A DNA stretch of 64,000 bases. It comes from an uncultured Candidatus Berkelbacteria bacterium. GTDB lineage: Bacteria; Patescibacteriota; UBA1384; UBA12157. The DNA lies in the NCBI GenBank assembly GCA_903877885.1, contig CAIRFN010000006.1, forward strand, positions 156,332-220,331, in the 5' to 3' direction. Positions within the stretch are counted from its first letter, which is position 1, and each line of letters begins with the position of its first letter. Of this stretch, positions 1,973 to 61,152 are shown one piece after another. The notes beneath the pieces were generated by a model. It saw nothing but the letters and a program-made list of their open reading frames with translations. It ran no database searches and was not told the DNA's origin. The position numbers and the translations under genes are program-made.

Positions 1973-2386
1973 TTAGCGCAAGTGGATGGTGATTTGACCC
2001 ACGCACTTTTTCAAGTCGTGGTTGACTTCGTTCCAGCCGGTGGGCTGAAGGAAGACGATATAGTCGCCATCCTGGGTTTTCAACTCAACGAACGTGTCTT
2101 TGAGTTGAAATTTCGGACACTCCCAGCTGGTTTCCCAGACTGCGATTCCGAACTTCGGTGACCAGACCTTTGCGGGCCCAGTGACCGAAATGGTCTGAAA
2201 CGGCTTGCAGATTTTATACTGCTTGCCGTAACTGTCCTGGATAACCAGGAGCGGCAGCTTAGCTTTCCATGAATGGTAAGCCTGGCAACCGGCGATCGAG
2301 GCGTAAGCCGCGATCAGGAGGAGCGCAACGACGGCGATGAGCCGGTTGCGGAGGCCGCGGGTGCGACGAGTGTTACTGCGAATCAT
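1973..2386 (-). CDS. Hypothetical membrane-anchored Cys-containing protein on a GC-rich island (likely horizontally acquired)
   Basis: 137-aa ORF with an N-terminal Arg-rich segment plus a hydrophobic anchor (LIAVVALLLIAAYASIAG) and four Cys. Local GC is clearly higher than the AT-rich background. Confidence 0.45.
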   Translation of the reverse strand: MIRSNTRRTRGLRNRLIAVVALLLIAAYASIAGCQAYHSWKAKLPLLVIQDSYGKQYKICKPFQTISVTGPAKVWSPKFGIAVWETSWECPKFQLKDTFVELKTQDGDYIVFLQPTGWNEVNHDLKKCVGQITIHLR

Positions 2387-2507
2387 GCTTTTATCCTTAC
2401 TTCAAGGTTCGAACTGCTTCAGAGAAGGATTTCTCTGTAAGCGCAAATATTCAGCACTAATATAGTATGATACCACAAAATCAGCCAAAAGTCAAGAGTA
2501 AGTGGTC

Positions 2508-3464
2508 CTATTTCTGGAAAATCTTGCCAATGACTTCTTCGGTGTCGGGATCGGTAATGGAAATATTTTCGACTGGAAAGACGGCGAAAACTTGTTCAAT
2601 CACTTGAGCCAAATCTTCTTTTTGAACGCGAATAATACCGTTATTTTCTACCAACTTTTTATTTTTACAATCGAGTTTGGCAAACTTTTCCTTGGCTTCC
2701 AAATTATCCAAGAAGATTTCAATTTTCTTTTCTGGCGCATATTTATTTTTAAGTTCTGCCAAACCGCCATCATAAATTTTTTGGCCTTTATTAATAATCA
2801 CCACCCGTTTGCACAGCGCTTCAATATCGCCCATGTAGTGACTAGTTAAAATCATGGTTGTCTTTTTTTCTTCATTGATTTTCTTTAAGAATTTGCGAAT
2901 TGCGTGTGAAGAAATTACATCTAATCCGATTGTTGGTTCATCAAGAAAAATAATTTTTGGACTATGTAAAAACGAGGCAGCCAATTCGCATTTCATCCGT
3001 TCGCCCAAACTCATATTACGTAGCGCTTTAGTTAGTAATGGTTTCATATCTAAAATTTCGACTATTTCATCCAAATTCTTTTTATAAACTTCAGTCGGAA
3101 TGGCATAAATTTCTTTGAGCAAATTAAAAGAATCAATCGCTGGCAAATCCCACCAGAGTTGATTTTTCTGACCCATCACAATGGCCATTTGACCTAAATA
3201 TTTGTAATCGCGTTCCCAAGGCGTAAAACCTAAAACTTTGGCTTCGCCGGAAGATGGGTGAATAATTCCAGAAAGAATTTTTAAGAAAGTGGTTTTGCCG
3301 GCGCCATTGGGACCCAAAAAGCCAACAAATTCACCTTCTTCAATGGTAATATTTAATTTATTGACCGCGGTTGTTTCTACTTTTTTGGACTTAAAAAGAT
3401 TGCGCCAATTAAACTCGGTTTTAGAGAAAACTTTGGAAATGTTTTTTGCTTCAATCGCAGACAT
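2508..3464 (-). CDS. ABC transporter ATP-binding protein (ABC-2 type system)
   Basis: Walker A GPNGAGKTT, signature MSLGERMK, Walker B IIFLDEPTIGLD, plus a C-terminal extension. It lies in an operon with two ABC-2 permeases. Confidence 0.85.
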   Translation of the reverse strand: MSAIEAKNISKVFSKTEFNWRNLFKSKKVETTAVNKLNITIEEGEFVGFLGPNGAGKTTFLKILSGIIHPSSGEAKVLGFTPWERDYKYLGQMAIVMGQKNQLWWDLPAIDSFNLLKEIYAIPTEVYKKNLDEIVEILDMKPLLTKALRNMSLGERMKCELAASFLHSPKIIFLDEPTIGLDVISSHAIRKFLKKINEEKKTTMILTSHYMGDIEALCKRVVIINKGQKIYDGGLAELKNKYAPEKKIEIFLDNLEAKEKFAKLDCKNKKLVENNGIIRVQKEDLAQVIEQVFAVFPVENISITDPDTEEVIGKIFQK

Positions 3465-7347: not shown

Positions 7348-8073
7348 ATGCCAAAAACAGAATTAAAATACAAACGCATTTTATTAAAACTTTCCGGCGA
7401 AGCATTGCTGGGTGAACGTGAATATGGTATCGATCCGGAAGTTTGCGATTACATTGCTAAAGAAATTGCCAAATTAGTTAAAAACAAAATCGAAGTGGTG
7501 GTGGTTTTAGGCGGCGGTAATATTTTCCGCGGGCTGGCGGCGGAAAAACACGGTATGAAACGAGTAACCGGCGATTATATTGGCATGCTTGCTACAGTGA
7601 TGAATTCCTTGGCTTTGGGTAGCGCTTTAAATAAAATTAAAATCGAAAATCGCGTTCAGTCGGCCTTGGACATGTCAAAGGTTTGCGAACCTTATATCCG
7701 CAATCGCGCCATTCGACATTTGGAAAAGCATCGAGTGGTAATTGTGGCGGCGGGCTCGGGGCATCCATATTTTTCAACTGATACCGCGGCGGCAGTCAGA
7801 GCTTGCGAACTGGATTGCCAAGTGGTTTTGAAAGCGACAAAAGTTTCCGGCGTGTTTGATAGAGACCCGGCTAAACACGACGATGCTAAAAAATTTGATA
7901 AATTAACCTATTTGGATGTGATTAATAATGATCAAATAAACGTCATGGATAGTACGGCCATCACGCTTTGTAAAGATAATAATATTCCGATTTTGGTTTT
8001 AAAATTGACGATTAAAGATAATATTTTGAAAGCTTGCCAGGGTCATAAAATCGGGACAATAATTGAGGCTTGA
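7348..8073 (+). CDS. pyrH: UMP kinase
   Basis: ILLKLSGEAL, VVVLGGGNIFRG, and length 241 aa. Confidence 0.9.
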   Translation: MPKTELKYKRILLKLSGEALLGEREYGIDPEVCDYIAKEIAKLVKNKIEVVVVLGGGNIFRGLAAEKHGMKRVTGDYIGMLATVMNSLALGSALNKIKIENRVQSALDMSKVCEPYIRNRAIRHLEKHRVVIVAAGSGHPYFSTDTAAAVRACELDCQVVLKATKVSGVFDRDPAKHDDAKKFDKLTYLDVINNDQINVMDSTAITLCKDNNIPILVLKLTIKDNILKACQGHKIGTIIEA

Positions 8074-8105
8074 AAAGTTTGCAATAATTTGCTAAAATAA
8101 GAGTA

Positions 8106-8783
8106 ATGGTTAAACCTTTTATCATTGGAATAACCGGAGGGACAGCTTCGGGCAAAACTTTTGTCATTGAAGCACTCAAGGATTACTTTGGGTCCAATAT
8201 TTTAGTTATTTCGCAAGATCAATATTACAAAAGTTCGGATGTCAAAACCATGGAACGTTGGGCTAGAATGAATCTTGACGAGCCAAAAGCTTTTGATAAT
8301 GAATCATTGGCTGAGCATTTGAAAAAATTATTGAAAGGTGAAAAAGTGATGGCGCCGGTTTATAATTATGCCACTCATCAACAGGAGAAAGCCCAAATTG
8401 AATTAGAACCAAGGCCGGTGATTGTTCTGGAAGGCATCTTAATTTTCCACGAAAAAATCATTCGGAATTTGACTAATTGGAAAGTATTTTTGGAAGCCTC
8501 GCCCGATATTCGTTTGGCAAGAAGATTACTTCGAGATTTGGAAGAACGCGGAGTTGATCAAAATGAACTTCATGCCGACATCGAAAGATATATGAATATT
8601 GTTAAGCCGATGTATGATCAATATATTGCGCCAATGAAAAAGTTTGCCAACAAAGTTTACAATACGGATAATGGTTCGCTGGACGCGGCTAAAGATATTG
8701 TTGGTCGCTTAAAAAAGGTTTACAAAAAGCATAAAATTGTTGTTGAAGAAAAAGTGTTGAAGGAAAAAGAGTATCAGTTTTAA
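8106..8783 (+). CDS. udk: Uridine kinase
   Basis: P-loop IIGITGGTASGKT; overall uridine/cytidine kinase architecture. Confidence 0.85.
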   Translation: MVKPFIIGITGGTASGKTFVIEALKDYFGSNILVISQDQYYKSSDVKTMERWARMNLDEPKAFDNESLAEHLKKLLKGEKVMAPVYNYATHQQEKAQIELEPRPVIVLEGILIFHEKIIRNLTNWKVFLEASPDIRLARRLLRDLEERGVDQNELHADIERYMNIVKPMYDQYIAPMKKFANKVYNTDNGSLDAAKDIVGRLKKVYKKHKIVVEEKVLKEKEYQF

Positions 8784-25150: not shown

Positions 25151-26503
25151 CTATTTTATTTTTCCAAACCATTTTGGCTTGGTCCCGTGGAAGCCTTTGA
25201 TAAAATCGGTAAAGCTCATGATCTGTTTTCCTTCGGGTTGAACCACATCTAAAACAAGTTTGTTATCGTCCATATGAGTTTGATGGATAATCAATCTTTT
25301 ATCATCAATAAAGGTGTAAGATCCTGGCCAAGGAAAATAGGCGCGAATTTGCGCGTCGATTTTGGCAGTTGGTTTTGTCCAATCAATTTCGCCGTCTTCT
25401 TTTTTAAATTTTTTTGTTCGGCTAGCTAAATTTTCATCTTGATCCATTGGATGAAGTTTATTATGGATTAGTCGAGGCAGTGAATGATAAAGCAATTTAA
25501 CGGCGGCGACAGCCAAGCGTTTTTCCAAACTTAAGCTATTATCATCTTCATCAATATCAATTTTGATTTGTGAAAGGACTGGCCCTTTATCAATTTCTGG
25601 CACCATTTTAATAAGTGACACGCCAGTTTCAACATCATTATTTAATATTGCAGTTTGAATTGGGGTGGCACCGCGGTATTTTGGTAAAAGTGATGGATGC
25701 AAATTAAGGGCGCCGAACTTGGCGACAGTTAAAATGTCATTTTTTAGAATTTGGCCGAAGTCGCTTAAAATAATTATATCTGGATCTTGAGCTTTAATTT
25801 TTTCTAAATCCAAATTAATGTTTTCGGTTTCTAGAATTGGTAAATCAAACCTAATCGCTTCTTCGTGTACGTTCGTGAACTTAGTTGCTTTATCTCGTCC
25901 GGCTGGTTTGGCTTTTTCAGTTACAACCAGCGGGATGTTTAAACCCAAAGAAATTAAGCCGCGCAAAATAATCGCTGCAAATTCGCCGGAGCCAACGAAA
26001 ACAATTTTCTTTGATTTTAAATCTGGAAAATCGCTTAAATATTTTTCTCGAACTCGGTCAGTAAACATAATACCGTTTAAATGATCGATTTCGTGTTGCA
26101 AAATGCGGGCTAAAAAACCTTTGGGCGCAATCTTTTTAGTTCGACCCATCTCATCTTGATATTTAACTTTAAGTTTTTTGCTTCGCTCGGTTTCCAATTC
26201 AATTGGTGGAATTGAAAGACAACCTTCATCAGCCAAATCAGTTTCATTGGAATATTCAATAATTTCCGGATTGACAAAACAAGTCAAAGGAATAATTCCC
26301 CGATCTTCATAAGGACATTCGACAATTAAAACTCGATTATCAATGCCAAGTTGATTGGCAGCTAAACCAACGCCGCCTTCGCCCCGTAAAGCTTTGGTCA
26401 TAGCTTTAATTTGATCAATTAAAGATTCGTTAAAATCGACCACTTTTTGAGTTGTCTTTTTTAAGATTTTATTTGGAACTGTGACTATTTTTAAGTTTTT
26501 CAA
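25151..26503 (-). CDS. Fused peptide deformylase / methionyl-tRNA formyltransferase (Def-Fmt)
   Basis: The N-terminal half has PDF motifs GVGLAANQLG, EGCLSIP and QHEIDHLNG. The C-terminal half is Fmt (KIVFVGSGEFA ... NLHPSLLPKYRGATPIQTAILN). A single 450-aa ORF. Confidence 0.85.
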   Translation of the reverse strand: MKNLKIVTVPNKILKKTTQKVVDFNESLIDQIKAMTKALRGEGGVGLAANQLGIDNRVLIVECPYEDRGIIPLTCFVNPEIIEYSNETDLADEGCLSIPPIELETERSKKLKVKYQDEMGRTKKIAPKGFLARILQHEIDHLNGIMFTDRVREKYLSDFPDLKSKKIVFVGSGEFAAIILRGLISLGLNIPLVVTEKAKPAGRDKATKFTNVHEEAIRFDLPILETENINLDLEKIKAQDPDIIILSDFGQILKNDILTVAKFGALNLHPSLLPKYRGATPIQTAILNNDVETGVSLIKMVPEIDKGPVLSQIKIDIDEDDNSLSLEKRLAVAAVKLLYHSLPRLIHNKLHPMDQDENLASRTKKFKKEDGEIDWTKPTAKIDAQIRAYFPWPGSYTFIDDKRLIIHQTHMDDNKLVLDVVQPEGKQIMSFTDFIKGFHGTKPKWFGKIK

Positions 26504-27693: not shown

Positions 27694-29502
27694 TTAGACA
27701 ATATCGAAGGGGTCGACGTCAATAATCCAACCTTTGCCAAGTTTTTTTAAAAATTCATCAAGTGTAGTGTTTCTTTTTGGTAATTTTAAAATCAGTTGAT
27801 AGTAAAAATAATCGCGTTTTTGTAAATTCCGCGCTGGCGCCGGGCCTAAAATATCTAATTCAATTTTTTCTTGTGTGACAATTTTTTGAATTTGGGTTTT
27901 TACTTTTTGCGTTTCCAGCTTGCATTCAGCTTCGCTGTAACTTCGATATGCTAATTTAATTAATTTAACGAAGGGTGGAAAATTGAATTTTTGGCGATTA
28001 ACTATTTCTGTTTGGTAAAATTTTTCATAATCCAAACTGGCCAGTGAACCGATAAAGCTGCTTTCTGATAATCGCGTTTGAATTATACCTGTTTCGGCAA
28101 TGCTCAAAAATTTGTAAAAGTTCTGAAATGATTTTTCAAAATTTCGAAATCCAGGAAAATTTAAACTTTGGTCTGCGTCTATAATAGCGACAAATTCGAT
28201 TACTGGAAAGATTTTTTTAAGCGCAAAACTGGTCACTACCGCAATATTCCAATCAGAATTTAAATCGTCTTCATGATCCTTCTCCACTCGAATTATTTTG
28301 GCATCTGGATATTGTTTTTTAATAATGCTAACTATTTTCCCAGTCGTTAAACCAATATCTTTTAAGTTTAAACTTTGGCATTTCGGACATTTAATAATAT
28401 TGGAAAATTGTTTTTCGCAATTATTACAATAAAAATTATCATCAATAATATTTAATGGCAACTGACATTGGGGACAAACATAAGTCCAACCACAATCGTC
28501 GCAAGTTCGACGCGAAGCTTGACCGCGACGATTTAAAACCAAAATCGCTTTTTGATTATTTTCTAAAATCAATTCGATTTTTTCTTTGAGCGGTTGACTT
28601 AAAATTTGTTTTTCAAAAGTCATATTTACAATCGAAATATCGGGGACTTTTTCGTTTTTATTTTTATACAAGAATTTATTAGTTTTAGCTTGGAAATAAG
28701 TTTCAATACTCGGTGCGCTTGAGCCTAGTACTAGACTCACGTTCGTGAGCTTGGTAAGTTGTTGCGCCACTTTAATCGCGCTAAATCTTGGTGATTGGTC
28801 GGATTTATAAGTTTCATTTTCCTCTTTGTCAATAATAATTAAACCCAAATTTGGCGCAGGCGAAAAGATTGCCGAAGTCGAACCTAAAATAATTTTTGCT
28901 TCCCCCCGACGAATTTTATCCCAAGCTAACCACCGCTGGGTCAGTGTTAAATTACCGTGAATAATTGTAATATCTTCTTTAATATATTTAGTAAAATAAT
29001 CAATCAAACTTAAATCCGGCACTAAAATAATTGTTTGTTTTTTCTGCGCCAACGTTTTTTTAATCGCCCGTAAATAGAATTTTAATCTGCTTGCAAAATC
29101 CGCCACAATTAAATATTGTTTAGCGTTAATATTTGGACTAGACTGGATTTCAATATCATAGTTAAGATTTTTCTTGATTGTTCGTTTGGCCGGTGGTACT
29201 ACAAAGTTGAACAACGTCTTACTAAAATCGCTTAAATAATAATCGCTCATCCACTTAGCTAAATCGGTTTGTGTTTTGTAGACGACTGGCACTGGGTCGA
29301 TCACGGCGACGATTGGTTTTAAATTTAGAATTTGCGACGAGCGTTTAATTTCTACAATTATGCCTTCAATATTTCTGCCGCGAAACGGCACCAAAACTAA
29401 AAGACCGATTTTAATCATCGGTAAAATTTCCGGCGGGATTGAGTAATCAAAAATTCCCTCACCCCGAGTTCTAATTTTCGGCACAACCTTGGCAATTTGC
29501 AT
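27694..29502 (-). CDS. priA: Primosomal protein N' (PriA) homolog with degenerate helicase motifs
   Basis: A 3'-DNA-binding-domain-like N-terminus, a PriA-like segment ILGSTSAIFSPAPNLGLIIIDKEENETYKS, and a Cys-rich zinc region (CDDCGWTYVCPQC..CNNCEK..CPKCQS). No GxGKT Walker A is present, and DExH is replaced by DKEE. Confidence 0.7.
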   Translation of the reverse strand: MQIAKVVPKIRTRGEGIFDYSIPPEILPMIKIGLLVLVPFRGRNIEGIIVEIKRSSQILNLKPIVAVIDPVPVVYKTQTDLAKWMSDYYLSDFSKTLFNFVVPPAKRTIKKNLNYDIEIQSSPNINAKQYLIVADFASRLKFYLRAIKKTLAQKKQTIILVPDLSLIDYFTKYIKEDITIIHGNLTLTQRWLAWDKIRRGEAKIILGSTSAIFSPAPNLGLIIIDKEENETYKSDQSPRFSAIKVAQQLTKLTNVSLVLGSSAPSIETYFQAKTNKFLYKNKNEKVPDISIVNMTFEKQILSQPLKEKIELILENNQKAILVLNRRGQASRRTCDDCGWTYVCPQCQLPLNIIDDNFYCNNCEKQFSNIIKCPKCQSLNLKDIGLTTGKIVSIIKKQYPDAKIIRVEKDHEDDLNSDWNIAVVTSFALKKIFPVIEFVAIIDADQSLNFPGFRNFEKSFQNFYKFLSIAETGIIQTRLSESSFIGSLASLDYEKFYQTEIVNRQKFNFPPFVKLIKLAYRSYSEAECKLETQKVKTQIQKIVTQEKIELDILGPAPARNLQKRDYFYYQLILKLPKRNTTLDEFLKKLGKGWIIDVDPFDIV

Positions 29503-29518
29503 AATATAATAGTACTAC

Positions 29519-30034
29519 TTAATCTTCATGTCGTTCAACAGTAAAACGAAATAAGGCGATTTCTTCGTCGGGCTCGATGCCGCCTTTTTCGCGAGCGATT
29601 GTGACTTGTTCTTCAACGCTTTTTATTCCTTTGATATCGGGTAAAAGCAAGCCATCGCGGCCGTCGGAAGCTTGAACAATAATGCCGTATTTTTCAATAT
29701 CCAAATCATCATTGGAAAAAACTTGTTCTGGTTCGTTTAATACATCAACACTAACCTTTAAATCCGCGAGTTCTTTAATTTCAACTGGTAAAAATCTCGG
29801 ATCTTGAGTGGCGGCAGCCACAGCATTGGCTTCGATTTCGCCGGCTAGATTTTTGTAAGTTGGTAAAACTGTGCCAATACAACCGCGCAGTTTATCGTTT
29901 TTATCGCGCAAAGTGACAAAACAGCTAGCGCGACGCGTTAAAATTTCCGGATTAACTTTTTTTAAATCCGGCAATTCTTCTTTTTCTAAATATAATTTGA
30001 TAGTATCGTAAGCTAATTGTTGGTAAATATCCAT
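29519..30034 (-). CDS. AMMECR1-domain protein
   Basis: RGCIG motif; 171 aa. Confidence 0.75.
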   Translation of the reverse strand: MDIYQQLAYDTIKLYLEKEELPDLKKVNPEILTRRASCFVTLRDKNDKLRGCIGTVLPTYKNLAGEIEANAVAAATQDPRFLPVEIKELADLKVSVDVLNEPEQVFSNDDLDIEKYGIIVQASDGRDGLLLPDIKGIKSVEEQVTIAREKGGIEPDEEIALFRFTVERHED

Positions 30035-30040
30035 TTTGGT

Positions 30041-30838
30041 CTAACTTTCTGGAACCTCGAAATTGGCAACGGCATAGCCAACGCCAAACGGGCCTTCATA
30101 ACTTAAAATTTGTGGTTCATAATTCATTTGGTCAAGCGCGCCGAGCAGAATTAAAATTGAGCGAAAGCCGCACTCGAACCAGTTGTCAATAATATCATCT
30201 TCATAAAAAAGAATATCTTGAATTTGTTTATTTTTTAAATCGTTAATCAACTGTTCATCATATGTTTTAGTTTCTGGAATTTGGATTAACTGATGGCTTA
30301 AATCACCAGAAGCTAAAATTCCGACTCGACCAGCGTATTTTTTTGCAACTTCGCCAATGATTTGACCAAAAGCAAAATGTTTGGCTCGATCTAAATTTGA
30401 ATAAGAAATGTTAACGATTTTTAAACCCATTTCTTGAGCGGTGCGCAGATAATACAAGGGGACCATTGCACCGTGATCAAGTTCATAAAACTCGCCACCA
30501 TTATCATATGGCACAAATGGAATGCCTTCTTTGTTGGCTGCTTCGGCGATATTTTCGACTAATTCCAAATCATTATTGTATTCAAAGGTGATATTTGGCT
30601 GATCAAATTGGGCTAGAGTGCCGAAACTTTTGGGCATAGCCGAAATATTAAAGCGATCCGGATAAATCAGTCCATGAGGTGAGATAATAATTAAGGTTTC
30701 AATTTCGGCTTCGCCAAAAATATGAGCTAGCTTACGCATACTAACAGCAGTGTCGGCGACTTTTTTCAAATCCTCTTTGCCGATTTCCGGAATTAAAAGT
30801 GGTGGATGCGGGGCTAGCCCGGCGAAATTTAATGACAT
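30041..30838 (-). CDS. LigB-family (class III extradiol dioxygenase-like) protein
   Basis: APHPP, ISPHG, LDHGAMVPL and ASGDLSHQL motifs; adjacent to the AMMECR1 gene with a 6-nt gap. Confidence 0.65.
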   Translation of the reverse strand: MSLNFAGLAPHPPLLIPEIGKEDLKKVADTAVSMRKLAHIFGEAEIETLIIISPHGLIYPDRFNISAMPKSFGTLAQFDQPNITFEYNNDLELVENIAEAANKEGIPFVPYDNGGEFYELDHGAMVPLYYLRTAQEMGLKIVNISYSNLDRAKHFAFGQIIGEVAKKYAGRVGILASGDLSHQLIQIPETKTYDEQLINDLKNKQIQDILFYEDDIIDNWFECGFRSILILLGALDQMNYEPQILSYEGPFGVGYAVANFEVPES

Positions 30839-36633: not shown

Positions 36634-37482
36634 ATGACTACGACAAATCGATTTCCCTTGATTCTTTGGGACGAAACCGAAGAATATAAAACCGAATATC
36701 AAGCCGCTTGCGAGAGATTCAAAACTCTTTATCAAAAATTGCTTGATCGAGGTTTCCGTTGTACTTTTTTGGGCGATTTAAAATATGATCAAAACGGTGA
36801 TGTTCAAGTTTGGCTAAATTCTAATCCATCATTATATCGAAGTGATTGGACGGCTCAAATTGCTCAAGAAAAAGCTTTAATTCATGGCGATACCGGTTGG
36901 TGGAGTCTGGACGAACTTGCGGATTTTGTTGACGGCCATGGTTTGATGTTCGAATGTGCGATGTGGGATTTTGGCTGGCGTCGCAATAAATTAGATCAAA
37001 CCAAGTGGACCAAATTATCGGCCAAAGAAAAGGATAAAACTTGCCCGGCTAAAATTACAGCCAGGGAAGAAAAAAATAAACATCTATTTCTGATGATGAT
37101 TGGCCGAATACCGCAGTGGCGGAAACTAATGGTCTTACCAAATTCTTCGGCCGGGATGAATCGAACCTATAATATCAGAGTTACGACTAAAGGAATGATT
37201 TTTATTTATCTTTGGTATAATTCTTTTACGGCGTCTTCGACTGAACAAATGGGGATTTTGTCAGTAATGGCTAATAAACGGGCTTTAATTGCTGCCAATC
37301 AAAATGATTTTGTAGTCAAAGCCTTTAACGCCAAATTAGATGAACAAGATGTGATTTATATCAAGTTTATGCGAAACGACAAATGCATTTTGGAATTTAT
37401 TTGGCCTAGCCAAATTTCGGCATGCCATATAAACCAATTGTTCGACGATTTGGCTTGCAAGGTTGAATCGATCAAAATTTAA
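36634..37482 (+). CDS. Hypothetical Trp-rich protein
   Basis: 282-aa ORF with no family recognised. Confidence 0.4.
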   Translation: MTTTNRFPLILWDETEEYKTEYQAACERFKTLYQKLLDRGFRCTFLGDLKYDQNGDVQVWLNSNPSLYRSDWTAQIAQEKALIHGDTGWWSLDELADFVDGHGLMFECAMWDFGWRRNKLDQTKWTKLSAKEKDKTCPAKITAREEKNKHLFLMMIGRIPQWRKLMVLPNSSAGMNRTYNIRVTTKGMIFIYLWYNSFTASSTEQMGILSVMANKRALIAANQNDFVVKAFNAKLDEQDVIYIKFMRNDKCILEFIWPSQISACHINQLFDDLACKVESIKI

Positions 37483-48269: not shown

Positions 48270-49466
48270 ATGAAAAAAACCTTAAATATTTCCCGGGAAA
48301 TTTTGGCGGTTTTATTAACTTCGGTTATTCTTTTGTTTTCTTTCCTTGCTTTCAGAACTAACATTTTCAACCAGACAAACGGTCGGACTTTTTTAGTGCA
48401 ACCGATTTCGGCGATTATTGTACCGCACCATGATTTAGCCAGTTCCCTTCGAGCCAGAACTCTGTTAGACGCTTCAGCTAAGGTTAATCCAAAAACTGTG
48501 GTCATTGTTTCGCCAAATCATTTTGATGCCGGTGGCTATAATATTGAAACGACCGATCGAACTTGGCGACTAACCAATGCCTATTTTATGCCAGACACGA
48601 CTAAAATCCAGGCGCTTAACTTGCCACTTGTAGATATGGCATTTGATCGCGAACATGGTATTTTTAACCTGTTAGATCCGGTTAAAACTGTTTTTCCTGA
48701 TACAAAAATTATCCCGATTATGATCAAACAAAATACACCAGCTGCTCAAATCGATGATCTGGAAAAGAGCTTGGAATTGGTTTGCGGTGGTGGTTGTCTT
48801 CTAATTTCTTCGATTGATTTTTCACATTATCAACCAGCTTCGATTGCTTCGGTTCATGATCTGTTGAGCATTAAAACATTATCAAATCTCAATGAAAACT
48901 TAGCTTGGCAAACCGAGGTTGATTCTAATCCAACCTTATATTTAACAATCAAATGGGCTAAAGCCAAAAACACCAATGATTTTCACTTGTCGGCTAATAC
49001 CAATTCTGGCATTATCTCTCATTCGCCGGATGCCGAATCAACCAGTTATGTTTCCGGTTGGTTTGAGTCCGGTTTGGTAAATCCGACCAAAACCGAAACT
49101 TTTGTCGCTGGATTTAATTTAAATAATCTGTCTGATAAGAGATTAGCAAATGGTTTAGATCAAAAAATTGATTTGAATAATAATCATGAGATGGGTTTGA
49201 TTTGCTACAATAAACCAGAATATTGCGGTTTAAACCGGTTGTTTTGGGGTCCGAATTTTTACCATCCGATTCTAAATGGTTTGGTTGTTGAAGGTGAAAT
49301 TCAAACCGATCAATATAAATTGGTTTTGGCTCCAACCGATCCGCAAACCAATTTGATTCTAACCGGTCAAAAAAAGCTAGATGAAATTAATCAAATTCGT
49401 CATAATTTAGGGTTAAATCCTACTACAATTGTTGATGAATATGATACAATATATTTAAATAAGTAA
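48270..49466 (+). CDS. Memo-like (MEMO1 family) protein with an N-terminal membrane anchor/signal and a C-terminal extension
   Basis: All five Memo blocks align: AIIVPHHDL (APHAGY), VVIVSPNHF (ILGPSHH), DREHGI (DEDEHSIE), IIPIMI (IIPVLVG), LLISSIDFSHY (VVSSDFCHW). Confidence 0.7.
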   Translation: MKKTLNISREILAVLLTSVILLFSFLAFRTNIFNQTNGRTFLVQPISAIIVPHHDLASSLRARTLLDASAKVNPKTVVIVSPNHFDAGGYNIETTDRTWRLTNAYFMPDTTKIQALNLPLVDMAFDREHGIFNLLDPVKTVFPDTKIIPIMIKQNTPAAQIDDLEKSLELVCGGGCLLISSIDFSHYQPASIASVHDLLSIKTLSNLNENLAWQTEVDSNPTLYLTIKWAKAKNTNDFHLSANTNSGIISHSPDAESTSYVSGWFESGLVNPTKTETFVAGFNLNNLSDKRLANGLDQKIDLNNNHEMGLICYNKPEYCGLNRLFWGPNFYHPILNGLVVEGEIQTDQYKLVLAPTDPQTNLILTGQKKLDEINQIRHNLGLNPTTIVDEYDTIYLNK

Positions 49467-49482: not shown

Positions 49483-51084
49483 ATGAAGAAAATTTGGCTT
49501 TGGATCTCAATTATTGTCTTAATTTTAGCGCTTGGTGGTGAACTATCGTATCTTTATTGGCCACAGATTAAGGTATTTAGTCAAAAATATTTGCCAAAAT
49601 CGGCTCAAACTGTTCAACCGATTATTCAAATTGCCGCTAGTCCTTCGGCCAGCCCGACAGTCAAATCGGTTGTAGTTTCCGACGCCGGTGTGACCTGGAT
49701 TGAACCCAAAAAACTCGATGATTTGAAATTAACAGCTGCTCAAACGACAAACGACGCCATCAATAATACTAATATCTATTACAAAATCGCCGATCTAACT
49801 GGCGGCGGCGAGTTAGATTTGGATGTTTATCAACCAGATTGTCCGTGTCAGCCGGAACTACTTCGATTTAAAAAAGATTCGGCTGGTAAATACACCTATT
49901 TAGTTAAAAACTCGGCCGAGCAGGATTATTCGACTTTTAGCCAAGTTATCAAACCTGAAGTAGTCGCCGACTATCAAACTATTTATCAATCAATTACGGC
50001 GCCAGACTTTTTAACCGTAAATGGCGCAACCTTAAAAGCCGGTGGTAATACTGGATTATTTTCCGATATCAGTAAAGACGCTCAAGAAATTACCACGACT
50101 GATTATGGTAAAATCTATCGAACCGGCATAAATTATTCCTTAAAGTTGGCCGATTCAACTTATGCCATCTATGTTAATAAATTTTCATTTCAAACCGATA
50201 ATGAAATTTCCCTTGTAACCTGGCTAGACGGCACAGCTAATACTGCGCGTTACACGGCCGAAGGTTATGTTGCTTGCGGTCGAACCGCTTCGAATAATAT
50301 TGTTAGCGACACGACTGATATTTCCAGTCGTTTAACTCAAATCGGTAAAACTAATGCCGGTGATCCGGTTTATACGGTGGTGGCTACCGACGCTTTAATG
50401 AAAGCGGCTTATGATAATTACAAGGTCGGTCGTGATAAGGATATTTTGACAATTGACCAATTTGCGGCCAAAAAACCAATTTTCATCTGGAAGAATGCTC
50501 TTGGCGATTATATTGTTTTTACCGGTCGTGATTTTGCAGGACTTGCCGAATGCGGTAAACCAGTAATTTATTTGTATCCAACCGAGGAAACTCAAGTCAA
50601 TGTTAAGCTTGGGGCGACTATTACCAAATCTGAACCCGTTTATAATAATGGTTGGCAAGTGATGGCTAAACCTAATGGCGAATTAACTTTTGGCGATAAA
50701 ATATATCAATCGCTTTATTGGGAAGGCACTGGTCAAGATTATCCGATTGTCAATCAAGGTTTTGTCGTAGCCAAGGCAGATTTAGAAAGAACATTGAAAG
50801 AGCAAGTAGCTAAATTAGGCTTGAATGATAAGGAATCCGCTGATTTTATGGCTTTCTGGTTACCAAAAATGCCTAAAACTGCTTATACTCGTTTAACTTG
50901 GTTTGGCACAAAAGACATAAATCGATTGGCGCCGCTAACAATTACCCCAAAACCAGATACAGTTATTCGCATTTTCTTGGATTTTCAAGGTTTAAATCAA
51001 AAAATCGATCTTAAACCACAAGTTTTGAGCGCGATCCCGCGTCAAGGTTTCACCGTTATCGAGTGGGGCGGTTTACTTAAGTAA
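49483..51084 (+). CDS. Hypothetical secreted/anchored protein
   Basis: 533-aa ORF with an N-terminal hydrophobic segment and no known domain; 17 nt after the Memo-like gene. Confidence 0.45.
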   Translation: MKKIWLWISIIVLILALGGELSYLYWPQIKVFSQKYLPKSAQTVQPIIQIAASPSASPTVKSVVVSDAGVTWIEPKKLDDLKLTAAQTTNDAINNTNIYYKIADLTGGGELDLDVYQPDCPCQPELLRFKKDSAGKYTYLVKNSAEQDYSTFSQVIKPEVVADYQTIYQSITAPDFLTVNGATLKAGGNTGLFSDISKDAQEITTTDYGKIYRTGINYSLKLADSTYAIYVNKFSFQTDNEISLVTWLDGTANTARYTAEGYVACGRTASNNIVSDTTDISSRLTQIGKTNAGDPVYTVVATDALMKAAYDNYKVGRDKDILTIDQFAAKKPIFIWKNALGDYIVFTGRDFAGLAECGKPVIYLYPTEETQVNVKLGATITKSEPVYNNGWQVMAKPNGELTFGDKIYQSLYWEGTGQDYPIVNQGFVVAKADLERTLKEQVAKLGLNDKESADFMAFWLPKMPKTAYTRLTWFGTKDINRLAPLTITPKPDTVIRIFLDFQGLNQKIDLKPQVLSAIPRQGFTVIEWGGLLK

Positions 51085-57933: not shown

Positions 57934-60900
57934 ATGCCAGCACAACAAGAATATACCGCTAAAAATATTACTGTTTTAGAGGGACTCGAACCGGTTCGAA
58001 AACGACCGGGCATGTATATTGGGGGAACCGGACTCGAAGGTTTACACCATTTGATTTGGGAAATTGTGGATAACTCGTTCGATGAGGCAATGGCCGGATA
58101 CGCCAAACAAATCGATGTTGAGCTCTTGCCAGATAATAAAGTTCGCGTGATCGATGATGGTCGTGGCATTCCAGTGGATAAACATCCAACGACCGGAAAA
58201 TCCGCTTTGGAAACTGTCTACACTGTGCTTCACGCTGGTGGTAAATTTGGTGAAGGTGGTGGTTATAAAGTTTCCGGTGGTCTTCATGGTGTCGGCGCTT
58301 CGGTTGTAAACGCGCTTTCAACTCATTTGCGCGCTGAAGTTTATCGTGATGGTCATATTTATGCTCAAGAATATGCCAGAGGAAAAGTTTTGGGAGATGT
58401 CAAAATCGTGGGTGAAACTGATAAAGATAAACATGGTACAGCCATTACTTTTCAACCTGATCCGGAAATTTTTCCTAATACCACTTTTTCACTAGATACG
58501 ATTTTAAATCATTTGCGTCAGCAAGCTTATTTAACCAAAAAAATTCATTTGCGCGTGGTTGATCATCGGGAAAATCCTGATGAGCCAGGTTATAATTTTT
58601 ATTTTGAAGGCGGCGTGGCCAGTTTTGTTCGTCATATCAATAAAAATCGTGTGGCACTCAATGAACCACCGTTTTATTTTGAAAAAGAAGTGGCTGACAA
58701 TACGGTTGAAGTTTCGATTGCTTATACCGATGATTACAATGAACACGTTTACACCTTTGCGAACAATATTTATACAGTTGAAGGTGGAACCCATTTGACT
58801 GGTTTTCGCACCGCTTTGACTCGCGCCATCAATGATTACGTTAAAAAATCGGAAATGAATAAAGGTGGAGATTTAACTTTTTCTGGTGAAGATGTGCGTG
58901 AAGGTTTAACGGCTGTGGTTTCGGTAAAATTACCAAATCCGCAATTTGAAGGTCAGACCAAAGGAAAGCTCGGCAACCCGGAAATGAAAAATATGGTTGA
59001 GCAGGTGACTTATGAAGGTCTGTCTTATTATTTTGAAGAACATCCACAAGATGCCCGAAAGATTATTGAAAAATGCGCTTTGTCGATGCGTGCTCGGGTG
59101 GCTGCCCGCGCCGCGCGCGATACCGTGATTCGAAAAGGCGCTCTGGAGGGTATGACTTTGCCAGGTAAGCTAGCAGATTGTTCCAATAAAGATTCCGCTA
59201 ACTCCGAACTTTACATTGTCGAGGGTGATTCCGCCGGCGGATGTTGGGATGGAAATACTAAAATTGCCTTAGCCGATGGTCGCAATCTTTCATTTATTGA
59301 TTTAGTCAAAGAAGATAAACAAGGTAAACAGAATTTTTGCTACACGATGCAGAAAAATGGTCATATTGGTGTTGCTCCAATTTTGAGTCCAAGAATAACC
59401 AAACGAAATACCGAAGTTATCAAGGTTACTTTGGACAATAATGAAGAACTTATTTGTACCCCAGACCATTTGTTTATGTTAAGAGATGGATCATATTTAC
59501 AGGCAAAAGATTTAGACAGCAGTATGAGCTTAATGCCTTTAAGGAAAAAAACATCTCAATTGGGTGGACGAATTACGATTTCTGGTTATGAAATGGTCTT
59601 AAATCCTCAAAACCATAAATGGGTTTTTACACATTTACTAGCCGATAATTATAATCTTGAAAATAACGTTTATTTATCTGAAGATGGTAGTCATAAACAT
59701 CATCAGGATTTTAATAAATTAAATAATAATCCCGATAATATTATCCGTATGACTCCAACTGACCATCTTGATTTGCATCGATCACATGCTAATAAAACTT
59801 TGCATACTCCAGAAACTATTGCTAAATGCAATGCAATTAAAAAGACGGAAGCTTATCGAGAAAAAATCAGCGCCACGATTAAAAATAATTATGGCCAAAT
59901 GTTAAGCGAAAAAGCTAAAAAACAATGGAGCGATCCAGAATATAAAGAGTTTATGCTTCAAAAATATATGGCTTTTTTCAACCAAAATAAAGAATTTCGA
60001 ATACGAATTCTAAACACTATAAACGAAGCTCAAAAACAATATTGGGCTAAGCCGGAAAACCGAGCTAAACAAGCTGAAAAAGTTAAAGAATATTTTACAA
60101 CTCACCCGGAATTAAAAGCGATTTTAGCCGAGAAAGCCAAAACAGAATGGCAAGACGCGGAGTTATTGAATTGGCGTCGAGAAAAAACTAAAGAACAGTG
60201 GAATCAAGATTTTCGAGCTAAACGAAAAGTTGCCTATAACCAAGTTTATTTAAATACCGGTTTAAGTTTTGCTAAAAAAGTTCTGGAAAAAAACGGTCAA
60301 GTCGACTTATATAACCAAGAAAGATCGTCGCTACCAAAAAGAAATCCAAATCTTGTCAAAATGGAAACGCTGATTTCACGATTCTTTAATGGCAAAAAAG
60401 AAGAATTTGTTGAGGCAGTGGCCAATTTCAATCATAAAATTAAATCAATTGAAAAAATCAATCAAAAAATTGATGTCTATGATATCGAAGTTCCAAACAC
60501 GCATAACTTCGCCTTAGCCAGTGGTATTTTTGTACACAATAGTGCCAAACAGGGTCGGGACAGAAAATTCCAGGCAATATTGCCACTTCGCGGTAAGATT
60601 TTAAACGTCGAACGCGCCCGTATGGATAAAATGCTATCTAACGAGGAAATTAAGAATTTGATTATTGCGATGGGTACCAGCATTGGCGATACTCTGAATA
60701 TGGATAAAATGCGTTATGGTCGCGTCATCATTATGACTGATGCTGATGTTGACGGCGCCCATATTCGAACCTTATTATTAACTCTTTTCTATCGGCATTT
60801 TCAAGAAATCATTACCGGTGGACATTTGTTTATTGCCCAACCGCCGTTATTCTTGGTCCAAAAAGGTAAGACCAAACAATGGGCTTACAATGAAGGTCAG

Positions 60901-61152
60901 ATGGAACAAGCGGTTAAAAAGATGGGTAAAGATGGGGTTAATGTTCAGCGTTACAAAGGTTTGGGAGAAATGAACCCGGAGCAATTGTGGGACACCACGA
61001 TGAATCCGGAAAATCGAGTTTTACTTAAGGTTTCGGCTCATGATGCCGAGCGCGCTGATGAAATTTTTTCCATGTTGATGGGCGACGAAGTAGCTCCCAG
61101 AAAACGATTTATCCAAACTCATGCTAAAAATGTTAAAAACCTAGATGTATAG
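57934..61152 (+). CDS. gyrB: DNA gyrase subunit B, interrupted by an in-frame intein
   Basis: GHKL ATPase, TOPRIM and C-terminal GyrB motifs. The host sequence EGDSAGG | SAKQGRDR is split by a 433-aa insert; the extein totals 639 aa. Confidence 0.95.
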   Translation: MPAQQEYTAKNITVLEGLEPVRKRPGMYIGGTGLEGLHHLIWEIVDNSFDEAMAGYAKQIDVELLPDNKVRVIDDGRGIPVDKHPTTGKSALETVYTVLHAGGKFGEGGGYKVSGGLHGVGASVVNALSTHLRAEVYRDGHIYAQEYARGKVLGDVKIVGETDKDKHGTAITFQPDPEIFPNTTFSLDTILNHLRQQAYLTKKIHLRVVDHRENPDEPGYNFYFEGGVASFVRHINKNRVALNEPPFYFEKEVADNTVEVSIAYTDDYNEHVYTFANNIYTVEGGTHLTGFRTALTRAINDYVKKSEMNKGGDLTFSGEDVREGLTAVVSVKLPNPQFEGQTKGKLGNPEMKNMVEQVTYEGLSYYFEEHPQDARKIIEKCALSMRARVAARAARDTVIRKGALEGMTLPGKLADCSNKDSANSELYIVEGDSAGGCWDGNTKIALADGRNLSFIDLVKEDKQGKQNFCYTMQKNGHIGVAPILSPRITKRNTEVIKVTLDNNEELICTPDHLFMLRDGSYLQAKDLDSSMSLMPLRKKTSQLGGRITISGYEMVLNPQNHKWVFTHLLADNYNLENNVYLSEDGSHKHHQDFNKLNNNPDNIIRMTPTDHLDLHRSHANKTLHTPETIAKCNAIKKTEAYREKISATIKNNYGQMLSEKAKKQWSDPEYKEFMLQKYMAFFNQNKEFRIRILNTINEAQKQYWAKPENRAKQAEKVKEYFTTHPELKAILAEKAKTEWQDAELLNWRREKTKEQWNQDFRAKRKVAYNQVYLNTGLSFAKKVLEKNGQVDLYNQERSSLPKRNPNLVKMETLISRFFNGKKEEFVEAVANFNHKIKSIEKINQKIDVYDIEVPNTHNFALASGIFVHNSAKQGRDRKFQAILPLRGKILNVERARMDKMLSNEEIKNLIIAMGTSIGDTLNMDKMRYGRVIIMTDADVDGAHIRTLLLTLFYRHFQEIITGGHLFIAQPPLFLVQKGKTKQWAYNEGQMEQAVKKMGKDGVNVQRYKGLGEMNPEQLWDTTMNPENRVLLKVSAHDAERADEIFSMLMGDEVAPRKRFIQTHAKNVKNLDV
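59242..60540 (+). mobile_element. GyrB intein (Ssp GyrB-type) with an HNH-family homing endonuclease region
   Basis: Begins with Cys (CWDGNTKIALADGRNLSFIDL) and ends ...NTHNFALASGIFVHN followed by Ser. The internal SHKHHQDF..NPDNIIRMTPTDHLDLHRSH is HNH-like, followed by KA..EW helical repeats. It resembles the Synechocystis GyrB intein blocks (VIKVTLDN..ICTPDH..MLRDGSY). Confidence 0.85.

Follow-up and report, generated by a model that had tools for sequence, protein, structure and literature searches.

PriA proteins without a working helicase motor have been described in Deinococcus and obtained by mutation in Escherichia coli. Here we report a PriA that appears to be of this kind from an uncultured Candidatus Berkelbacteria bacterium. 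Its gene lies in a 64,000-nucleotide stretch of DNA, the whole of which is called the window here (GenBank assembly GCA_903877885.1, contig CAIRFN010000006.1, positions 156,332 to 220,331 of the forward strand). The PriAs of the Deinococcus-Thermus group match the Walker A and B motifs poorly, and the changes include a Lys-to-Arg replacement (PMC4504706, Lopper, Boone & Morrow 2015). ATPase and unwinding activities were absent from the purified Deinococcus radiodurans PriA. It bound single-stranded DNA (ssDNA) with a dissociation constant (Kd) of ~215 nM and fork DNA with a Kd of ~108 nM, and it formed complexes with its DnaB (PMC4504706). A 2017 review described PriA helicase activity as conserved "except in Deinococcus" (PMC5778457). 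The E. coli priA300 product (K230R) is without ATPase, helicase, and translocase activity and is near wild type in vivo. Apart from some special situations, only the PriA-PriC pathway depends on the helicase activity of E. coli PriA (PMC5778457). DnaB-loading assays routinely employ K230A PriA, and PriA-PriB restart proceeds without a need for the ATPase (PMC10175261).

The PriA encoded in the window (the window protein) has degenerate ATPase motifs. It is probably a pseudohelicase that acts as an ATP-independent restart platform. Judged from the motifs, this apparently motor-less PriA is a conserved state in the whole candidate phylum. The same signature is found in other Patescibacteria and in a large Omnitrophota clade.

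Loss of the ATPase motifs

The priA gene is an open reading frame (ORF) at 27694..29502 on the minus strand, as are all of the priA features given below. It opens with an ATG codon and encodes a product of 602 amino acids (aa) plus a stop. It was assigned as a priA ortholog of degenerate (pseudohelicase) type from the ORF, the TIGR00595 profile, matches to PDB structures, and AlphaFold2 (AF2) and Foldseek results. An earlier reading of the bare sequence (the initial annotation) had described this gene as a PriA homolog that keeps its DNA-binding and Cys-rich regions and lacks the Walker A and DExH motifs. It had proposed an ATPase-dead protein that may serve only as a primosome-assembly scaffold. 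We mapped the motifs with pairwise HMMER alignments and with MAFFT against the PriA of E. coli MG1655. Both methods agree.

The former Walker A motif (motif I) covers residues 130-143 (29074..29115; phmmer and MAFFT) and reads YLIVADFASRLKFY; the stretch YLIVADFASRLKF also begins at residue 130. Here GVTGSGKTEVY of E. coli is replaced by A-DFASRLKFY. The glycines and the Thr are lost, one residue is deleted, and Lys230 has become Arg139. phmmer pairs ASRLKFYL with SGKTEVYL and IIIDKEENETYK with IVIDEEHDSSYK. The initial annotation was right that the GxGKT P-loop is absent. ADFASRLKFY stands in its place, and no GK[ST] occurs anywhere in the protein.

The former motif II region covers residues 219-234 (28801..28848; phmmer and MAFFT) and carries LGLIIIDKEENETYKS, which begins at residue 219. 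IDEEHD has become IDKEEN. The alignments concur with the change from DEEH to DKEE that had been noted before, and both the PDB and the MAFFT alignments retain the PriA-specific neighborhood of this motif. The codon of residue 226 (28825..28827) specifies Lys. Gln stands at this position in 31 of 34 close relatives, and no other protein of the set has Lys there.

The remaining motifs are lost or kept to different degrees. In motif Ia, PEIGLTPQ has become PDLSL, with TPQ deleted. Motif III is largely kept (GSATP to GSSAP), and motif IV is LNRRG in E. coli and the window protein alike. The remnants of motifs V and VI lie at residues 420-472 (28087..28245; phmmer and MAFFT). Motif V is degenerate, with IGTQMLAKGHHFP replaced by VVTSFALK-KIFP. 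In motif VI, QVAGRAGRAGKQG is replaced by KFLSIAETG. Both arginines (the arginine fingers) are gone, and six residues are deleted.

A further loss lies upstream of the P-loop. E. coli residues ~109-221, which hold the winged-helix domain and the LNTEQATAV Q-motif segment, are replaced in the window protein by a 21-residue linker. This short, unconserved linker (residues 107-127; 29122..29184) was delimited by the alignment gap against E. coli PriA and the canonical PriA P0117. A winged-helix domain between the 3'-DNA-binding domain (3'BD) and lobe 1 is thus missing from the window protein.

The initial annotation had named an intact Walker A or B motif at a shifted position as the observation that would overturn its reading. 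A regular-expression scan of the whole protein found no [AG]xxxxGK[ST], GK[ST], DE.[HDQ], GRxGR, or RxxR. The same kind of scan found no Walker A or DExH motif in the other two frames of the same strand. These scans thus showed no intact motif that is shifted or hidden by a frameshift, and the finding that could have overturned the reading was not made. Mapping against the TIGR00595 profile and PriA structures confirmed the motif loss and found it to be broader than had been claimed. It extends to the Q-motif segment, the winged helix, TPQ of motif Ia, motif V, and motif VI. The window protein is predicted to be ATPase dead because several independent losses coincide. The Q-motif segment is missing, the P-loop has lost its glycines and Thr, DExH has lost its catalytic Glu and His, and motif VI is without its arginines, so that every element required for binding and hydrolyzing ATP is affected.

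Fold, orthology, and gene neighborhood

The window protein scored 302.9 bits against TIGR00595 (priA, NCBIfam), which has a cutoff of 230.35 bits. The match runs from model position 13. Both this match and the PDB alignment begin at about the former P-loop. The window protein scored far under the cutoffs of the full-length PRK05580 and PRK14873 equivalog models. Pfam gave no match to DEAD, ResIII, or a proper Helicase_C domain in the window protein. A phmmer search of the PDB matched the PriA structures of E. coli and Klebsiella pneumoniae with E values of ~1e-53.

The 3'BD covers residues 1-106 (29185..29502; Pfam and alignments). PF17764 (PriA_3primeBD) matches residues 15-98 with an E value of 3.2e-19, and so the domain that the initial annotation had recognized at the N terminus is retained. 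The 3'-end pocket of the window protein (D19, Y20, and K62) aligns with D17, Y18, and K61 of E. coli. RecA-like lobe 1 covers residues 128-285 (28648..29121). Its fold is kept and its ATPase motifs are lost, as judged from AF2 secondary structure and Foldseek. RecA-like lobe 2 covers residues 286-480 (28063..28647; alignments and AF2). It keeps motif IV and contains the inserted Cys-rich region (CRR) at residues 331-380 (28363..28512; sequence scan). The CRR has four CxxC pairs (C334/337, C343/346, C359/362, and C372/375), and these eight Cys residues bear out the Cys4-Cys4 region reported earlier. The PriA C-terminal domain (CTD) covers residues 481-602 (27697..28062). PF18074 (PriA_C) matches residues 510-598 with an E value of 5.6e-11, and the predicted local distance difference test (pLDDT) score of the CTD is >90.

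The AF2 model of the window protein, from a 91-sequence alignment, had a mean pLDDT of 92.2 and a predicted template modeling (pTM) score of 0.90. The weakest stretch was the linker at residues ~107-128 (pLDDT, 57-76). In a Foldseek search of the PDB, the top matches were PriA chains only. The best was 8FAK chain H (TMq, 0.88; E value, 1e-49). The winged-helix-deletion E. coli structure 6DCR and the structure 4NL4 scored ~0.73. These PriA chains share 21-25% identity with the window protein. The next family was Mfd, with an E value weaker by ~40 orders of magnitude. The AF2 and Foldseek results indicate that the PriA fold is complete except for the winged helix, with the 3'BD, two RecA-like lobes, the Cys-rich insertion, and the CTD all present.

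The difference between the scores to 8FAK (0.88) and to the apo form (0.73) raised the possibility of a pseudohelicase locked in the fork-bound, CRR-pivoted state. A canonical control led us to reject it. P0117, modeled likewise, gave a TMt of 0.89 to 8FAK and 0.71 to 4NL4. It shows the same preference for 8FAK, which is therefore not specific to the pseudohelicase. In template-free AF2 models (mb74130006dee and m07a844fc1476), the CRR of degenerate and canonical PriA is placed in the pivoted, pore-forming position of 8FAK. 8FAK is a 2023 cryo-electron microscopy structure, and the AF2 placement of the CRR differs from that in earlier crystal structures.

The identical protein sequence was found on 16 independently assembled metagenomic contigs. 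The window protein is thus not an assembly artifact. On one side of the gene is a Memo-like/AMMECR1 pair, and on the other is a gene for a GT4 glycosyltransferase. A def-fmt fusion follows two genes downstream of priA, and after it come rpsP, trmD, and other genes. A priA-def-fmt order is a common bacterial gene arrangement. The order Memo-AMMECR1-priA-GT4-def/fmt is common to the window, to L002-L005, and to the distant clade members L014 and L081-L083. The window gene is most likely the housekeeping, orthologous, single-locus priA. Its named relatives all belong to Candidatus Berkelbacteria or to unclassified Patescibacteria, and complete genomes among them are CP011213.1 (915 kb) and OY969116.1 (929 kb). 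These relatives point to a Berkelbacteria-like candidate-phyla bacterium as the source of the window.

Conservation in the Berkelbacteria-type clade

The clade was sampled as the best 120 database matches to the window protein. About 110 of these are ~600 aa long, or fragments of such proteins, and in Pfam they show nothing but the 3'BD, PriA_C, or both. These ~110 homologs have the degenerate state at 34-60% identity. Canonical PriAs, which are ~808 aa long and match DEAD, Helicase_C, and ResIII, appear only at 32-34% identity. The state is not a chance lesion of one gene because ~110 homologs share it. All of the short clade proteins have degenerate motifs. An Arg at the Walker A Lys column is near-invariant among them, and motif II is mostly D-Q-E-E.

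Domain conservation was expressed as the mean pairwise identity in an alignment of the 34-member close clade. It was highest in the 3'BD (0.64), followed by lobe 1 (0.54), lobe 2 (0.50-0.52), the CRR (0.49), and the CTD (0.41). The two lobes are about as well conserved as the CRR, unlike the linker, which had a value of 0.22. The former active site is conserved in the close clade at R139 (34/34), D225 (33/34), Q226 (31/34), E227 (31/34), and E228 (33/34). These dead-site residues rank among the most conserved positions of the close clade. F18, D19, Y20, and all eight Cys residues are invariant there. The eight Cys residues are also invariant in 52 diverse degenerate sequences, and 94-96% are kept across all 170 degenerate sequences of the larger set described below. 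This pattern speaks strongly against a decaying pseudogene and indicates a noncatalytic purpose for which the lobes are kept. At the level of sequence, it shows that the putative pseudohelicase state is under purifying selection across the whole Berkelbacteria-type lineage.

One Berkelbacteria subclade (P0091-P0102, including chromosome OY969116.1) has its degenerate priA in two overlapping ORFs in different frames. One ORF encodes a 3'BD of 115-121 aa, and the other encodes a body of 490-496 aa. The split falls precisely in the linker that stands in place of the winged helix, and the order of the neighboring genes is unchanged. The pairs are at 8001..8357 and 8302..9792 in L014, 2161..2508 and 2501..3973 in L081, 694..1041 and 1034..2506 in L082, and 2143..2508 and 2501..3973 in L083. 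The split is a real gene fission because it was found again in independent assemblies.

Two metagenome-assembled genomes (MAGs) labeled "uncultured Candidatus Saccharibacteria" encode a Berkelbacteria-type degenerate PriA. These are L007 (CAYSSM010000008.1) and L013 (CAYZMA010000019.1), whose PriAs are 53% and 48% identical to the window protein, respectively. The labels may be taxonomic misassignments.

Degenerate PriAs in other lineages

When 1.84 billion representatives were searched exhaustively, 17,889 PriA-like matches were obtained. Motif states were scored in a set of 260 sequences, which comprised the 120 best matches, 139 new sequences among the best 150 representatives, and E. coli PriA. 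In this set, 170 sequences are without GK[ST], DExH, and the motif VI RxxR. Another 74 have canonical motifs throughout, and the other 16 have a mixed state. The Walker A Lys column holds R or K in 162 of the 170 degenerate sequences, and Asp320 is present in 157. Degenerate PriAs outside the close clade include proteins of the Parcubacteria group and of Patescibacteria group bacteria. The PriA of Torokbacteria (P0145) is canonical. Further degenerate PriAs, from Peregrinibacteria, Buchananbacteria, the Parcubacteria group, other Patescibacteria, some Nitrospirales, and one MAG each of Deltaproteobacteria and Bacteroidales, are encoded at L032, L034, L047/L048/L050, L068, L072, and L076/L078/L079, and many of P0124-P0256 are also of this type. 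P0230 and P0233 (~810 aa) are degenerate yet keep a long N-terminal region.

We considered winged-helix loss as a part of the pseudohelicase syndrome and rejected it as unspecific. Among the 74 motif-intact PriAs, 21 are equally short, with <=60 residues separating the 3'BD from the P-loop.

A scan of species-representative genomes found degenerate PriAs in ~35 Omnitrophota genomes, in Peregrinibacteria, Buchananbacteria, and some Nitrospirales, and in one Deltaproteobacteria MAG. The scan used the close-clade pattern, which contains D-Q, and its distant matches are biased to a D-Q motif II. In the same scan, the PriAs of Anaerolineales, Akkermansiaceae, and Christensenella were canonical. A degenerate PriA also occurs in one Bacteroidales MAG. 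In acIV/Acidimicrobiia actinobacterial PriAs, the P-loop region is missing and DEHD is kept.

Because of the D-Q bias, we also ran an unbiased homolog search from one Omnitrophota PriA and took its 120 best matches (P0273-P0392). None of the 120 has GK[ST], DExH, or the motif VI arginines, and the residue at the K230 column is Arg in 119. The eight Cys residues are present in all 120. These proteins are ~600-630 aa long, with D-Q in motif II. Omnitrophota degenerate priA loci are L030, L035-L036, L039, L041-L045, L049, L051-L060, L062-L067, and L074 (for example, 8001..9788 in L058).

With the motif columns set aside, identity is 27% between the Berkelbacteria and Omnitrophota types and 31% between either type and canonical PriAs. 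In a crude bootstrap neighbor-joining analysis that also omitted these columns, 49 of 50 trees failed to unite the degenerate groups in a single clade. Both results point to independent origins with a convergent Lys-to-Arg and Glu-to-Gln signature. The Berkelbacteria and Omnitrophota pseudohelicases probably arose independently, as far as these comparisons of sequence can tell. The degenerate state is conserved in the whole lineage of the window protein and is recurrent elsewhere. This goes beyond the single-gene view of the initial annotation.

Database names for these proteins are inconsistent. They include primosomal protein N', "primosome assembly protein PriA," and "Probable replication restart protein PriA." The UniProt wording "Probable" is applied to PriAs without detectable helicase domains. 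One Omnitrophota relative is labeled "replication restart helicase PriA," and it almost certainly lacks the helicase activity for which it is named. Within the limited coverage of our literature search, which does not prove absence, we found nothing relevant on PriA in the Candidate Phyla Radiation, Patescibacteria, or Omnitrophota.

Predicted function and alternative explanations

The window protein would neither translocate on DNA nor unwind it. It would recognize abandoned forks and D-loops through its 3'BD, lobes, CRR, and CTD. Once bound to DNA, it would serve as an ATP-independent platform that recruits DnaB, either directly or through a loader. The cluster of Arg139 and Asp225-Gln-Glu-Glu is most likely structural and may form, for example, a salt-bridge network that holds lobe 1. 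The scaffold role proposed in the initial annotation was an inference. By analogy, D. radiodurans PriA and the E. coli K230R and K230A proteins support it.

In E. coli, the CRR pivots to enclose the ssDNA lagging strand, and a duplex lagging arm needs prior unwinding (PMC10175261, PMC13594977). If this CRR-switch model applies, a motor-less PriA would likely be limited to forks and D-loops with a single-stranded lagging arm, unless another enzyme clears the arm.

Several points weigh against a restart platform of this kind. Work on E. coli from 2026 suggests that forks with a duplex lagging strand must be unwound before the loading-competent state is attained (PMC13594977). By analogy, a helicase-less PriA would be handicapped on such forks unless it is compensated. 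The strong conservation of the dead site could mean that the pocket still binds some ligand. ATP binding, as distinct from hydrolysis, may also be possible for the window protein. We looked for a compensating helicase or a primosome partner with Pfam on ORFs of >=260 aa and in the precomputed Pfam matches around priA, extending 10 kb beyond each end of the window. No candidate was found in the window and ~10 kb on each side; DnaB, a loader, PriB, DnaT, DnaD, RecG, Rep, UvrD, and PcrA were all absent from this region. The neighbors found instead were UvrA, GyrB/GyrA, RNase Y, transporters, and similar proteins. A last point against is that the window protein could be a specialized paralog, a regulator or fork-binding factor, with restart left to a canonical active PriA elsewhere in the genome. 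The inspected sequence is ~84 kb of a genome of roughly 0.9 Mb, as judged from the complete relatives, and at least one other candidate-phylum lineage (Torokbacteria) has a canonical PriA. The gene, however, sits in the classical priA-def-fmt position, its neighborhood is kept across the clade, and all of the Berkelbacteria-named PriA matches that we saw are of the degenerate type. priA is normally a single-copy gene, and genomes of this kind are small. We consider a paralog improbable.

The window protein might instead still be an ATPase and helicase that works with noncanonical residues, with Arg139 in place of the Walker A Lys and Glu227 or Glu228 as the catalytic base. A basic residue at the Walker A Lys column and Asp320 are each kept in most of the 170 degenerate sequences, the dead-site residues are highly conserved, and motifs III (GSxxP) and IV (LNRRG) are retained. 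Nevertheless, the P-loop has lost its glycines and Thr and is shorter by one residue. Also deleted are the arginine fingers of motif VI and the Q-motif segment, which recognizes adenine. K230R alone abolishes the ATPase of E. coli PriA (PMC5778457), and D. radiodurans PriA, with milder motif changes, is without detectable ATPase (PMC4504706). On these grounds, a surviving motor is very improbable. It is less credible still that the gene is a decaying, nonfunctional relic on its way to loss from a reduced genome. Genomes of the candidate phyla are reduced, the ATPase motifs are eroded, and in one subclade the gene lies in two ORFs. Decay is nevertheless hard to reconcile with intact ORFs in ~110 homologs at 34-60% identity, with many invariant residues in and outside the former active site, and with the retained set of eight zinc ligands. 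Conservation is even across the domains except for the linker, and the AF2 model has high confidence and good packing. In the split form, too, both halves persist as overlapping ORFs in the same neighborhood, and they do so in independent assemblies.

The preferred reading thus stays with a pseudohelicase that serves as an ATP-independent restart platform. A wider scenario is tentative, and we regard it as possible but rather unlikely. In it, loss of the PriA motor would be recurrent and convergent in Berkelbacteria, other Patescibacteria, Omnitrophota, and possibly some Nitrospirales, each time via the same Lys-to-Arg and Glu-to-Gln changes. The dead pocket would be under strong selection because it had been repurposed, either as a built-in latch in place of nucleotide binding or as a nonhydrolytic site for a ligand or partner. 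In these bacteria, PriA would make direct contact with DnaB and load it constitutively and independently of ATP.

Other genes in the window

The genes for peptide deformylase (def) and methionyl-tRNA formyltransferase (fmt) are fused in a 450-aa ORF at 25151..26503 on the minus strand. The def-fmt fusion is also present in relatives, where it is 461-496 aa long. The AMMECR1 and Memo/LigB-like genes (29519..30838, minus strand) lie directly upstream of priA, and their pairing beside priA is a conserved feature of the clade. The window has a second Memo-like ORF ~18 kb away, at 48270..49466 on the plus strand. No radical-SAM partner was seen beside the Memo/AMMECR1 pair.

The gyrB gene (57934..61152, plus strand) encodes a 1072-aa product with an intein inside. 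The Pfam model Intein_splicing aligns with residues 453-869, which separate the GyrB domain from Toprim. The gyrA gene follows gyrB and runs past the end of the window. Two ORFs on the plus strand had no Pfam match, one of 533 aa at 49483..51084 (at an E value of <=1e-5) and one of 282 aa at 36634..37482 (at an E value of <=1e-4).

Relation to described PriA proteins

A PriA pseudohelicase has previously been described only in Deinococcus, and the mechanism itself is not new. Noteworthy here are a distribution much broader than the Deinococcus case, an apparent convergence, and a variant that occurs naturally in two pieces. If it is biochemically true, then ATP-independent fork recognition and helicase recruitment would be a common bacterial solution. 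There would also be natural minimal PriAs of ~600 aa, even in two pieces, with which to separate the needs of loading from those of unwinding.

Compared with canonical PriAs (4NL4, 6DCR, 6DGD, and 8FAK), the window protein has the same order of 3'BD, lobe 1, lobe 2 with the CRR, and CTD. It differs in that it is without a winged helix and without functional helicase motifs. Its architecture resembles that of 6DCR. NF004069, a 612-position model of short PriAs that lack the winged helix, aligns with it end to end (query residues 30-601, model positions 24-611). Short PriAs with intact motifs still carry GxGKT and DExH as well as the arginines of motif VI, whereas the window protein scores 220 bits against a cutoff of 767. 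The Omnitrophota PriAs are like the Berkelbacteria type in that the 3'BD, CRR, and CTD are present and the helicase Pfam domains are absent.

The E. coli K230R, K230A, and K230D proteins also have an altered Walker A Lys. They are ATPase and helicase dead and remain competent for primosome assembly, PriA-PriB restart, and DnaB loading in vitro (PMC5778457, PMC10175261). They are, however, single-residue laboratory mutants of a complete helicase that works with PriB, DnaT, and DnaC, whereas the window protein is a natural form in which all of the ATPase motifs are lost.

The D. radiodurans PriA is like the window protein in its degenerate Walker A and B motifs, its Lys-to-Arg change, and its retained DNA-binding and Cys-rich regions. 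By analogy, both would be expected to bind forks and recruit the helicase without ATP hydrolysis. The erosion is far more extensive in the window protein than in the D. radiodurans protein, which is known here from its published description (PMC4504706). The window protein is also compact (602 aa) and belongs to another lineage. Its extra losses relative to Deinococcus are the Q-motif segment, the winged helix, TPQ of motif Ia, motif V, and the motif VI arginines. An origin independent of the Deinococcus-Thermus PriA clade is likely because the named relatives of the window protein are all Berkelbacteria or Patescibacteria.

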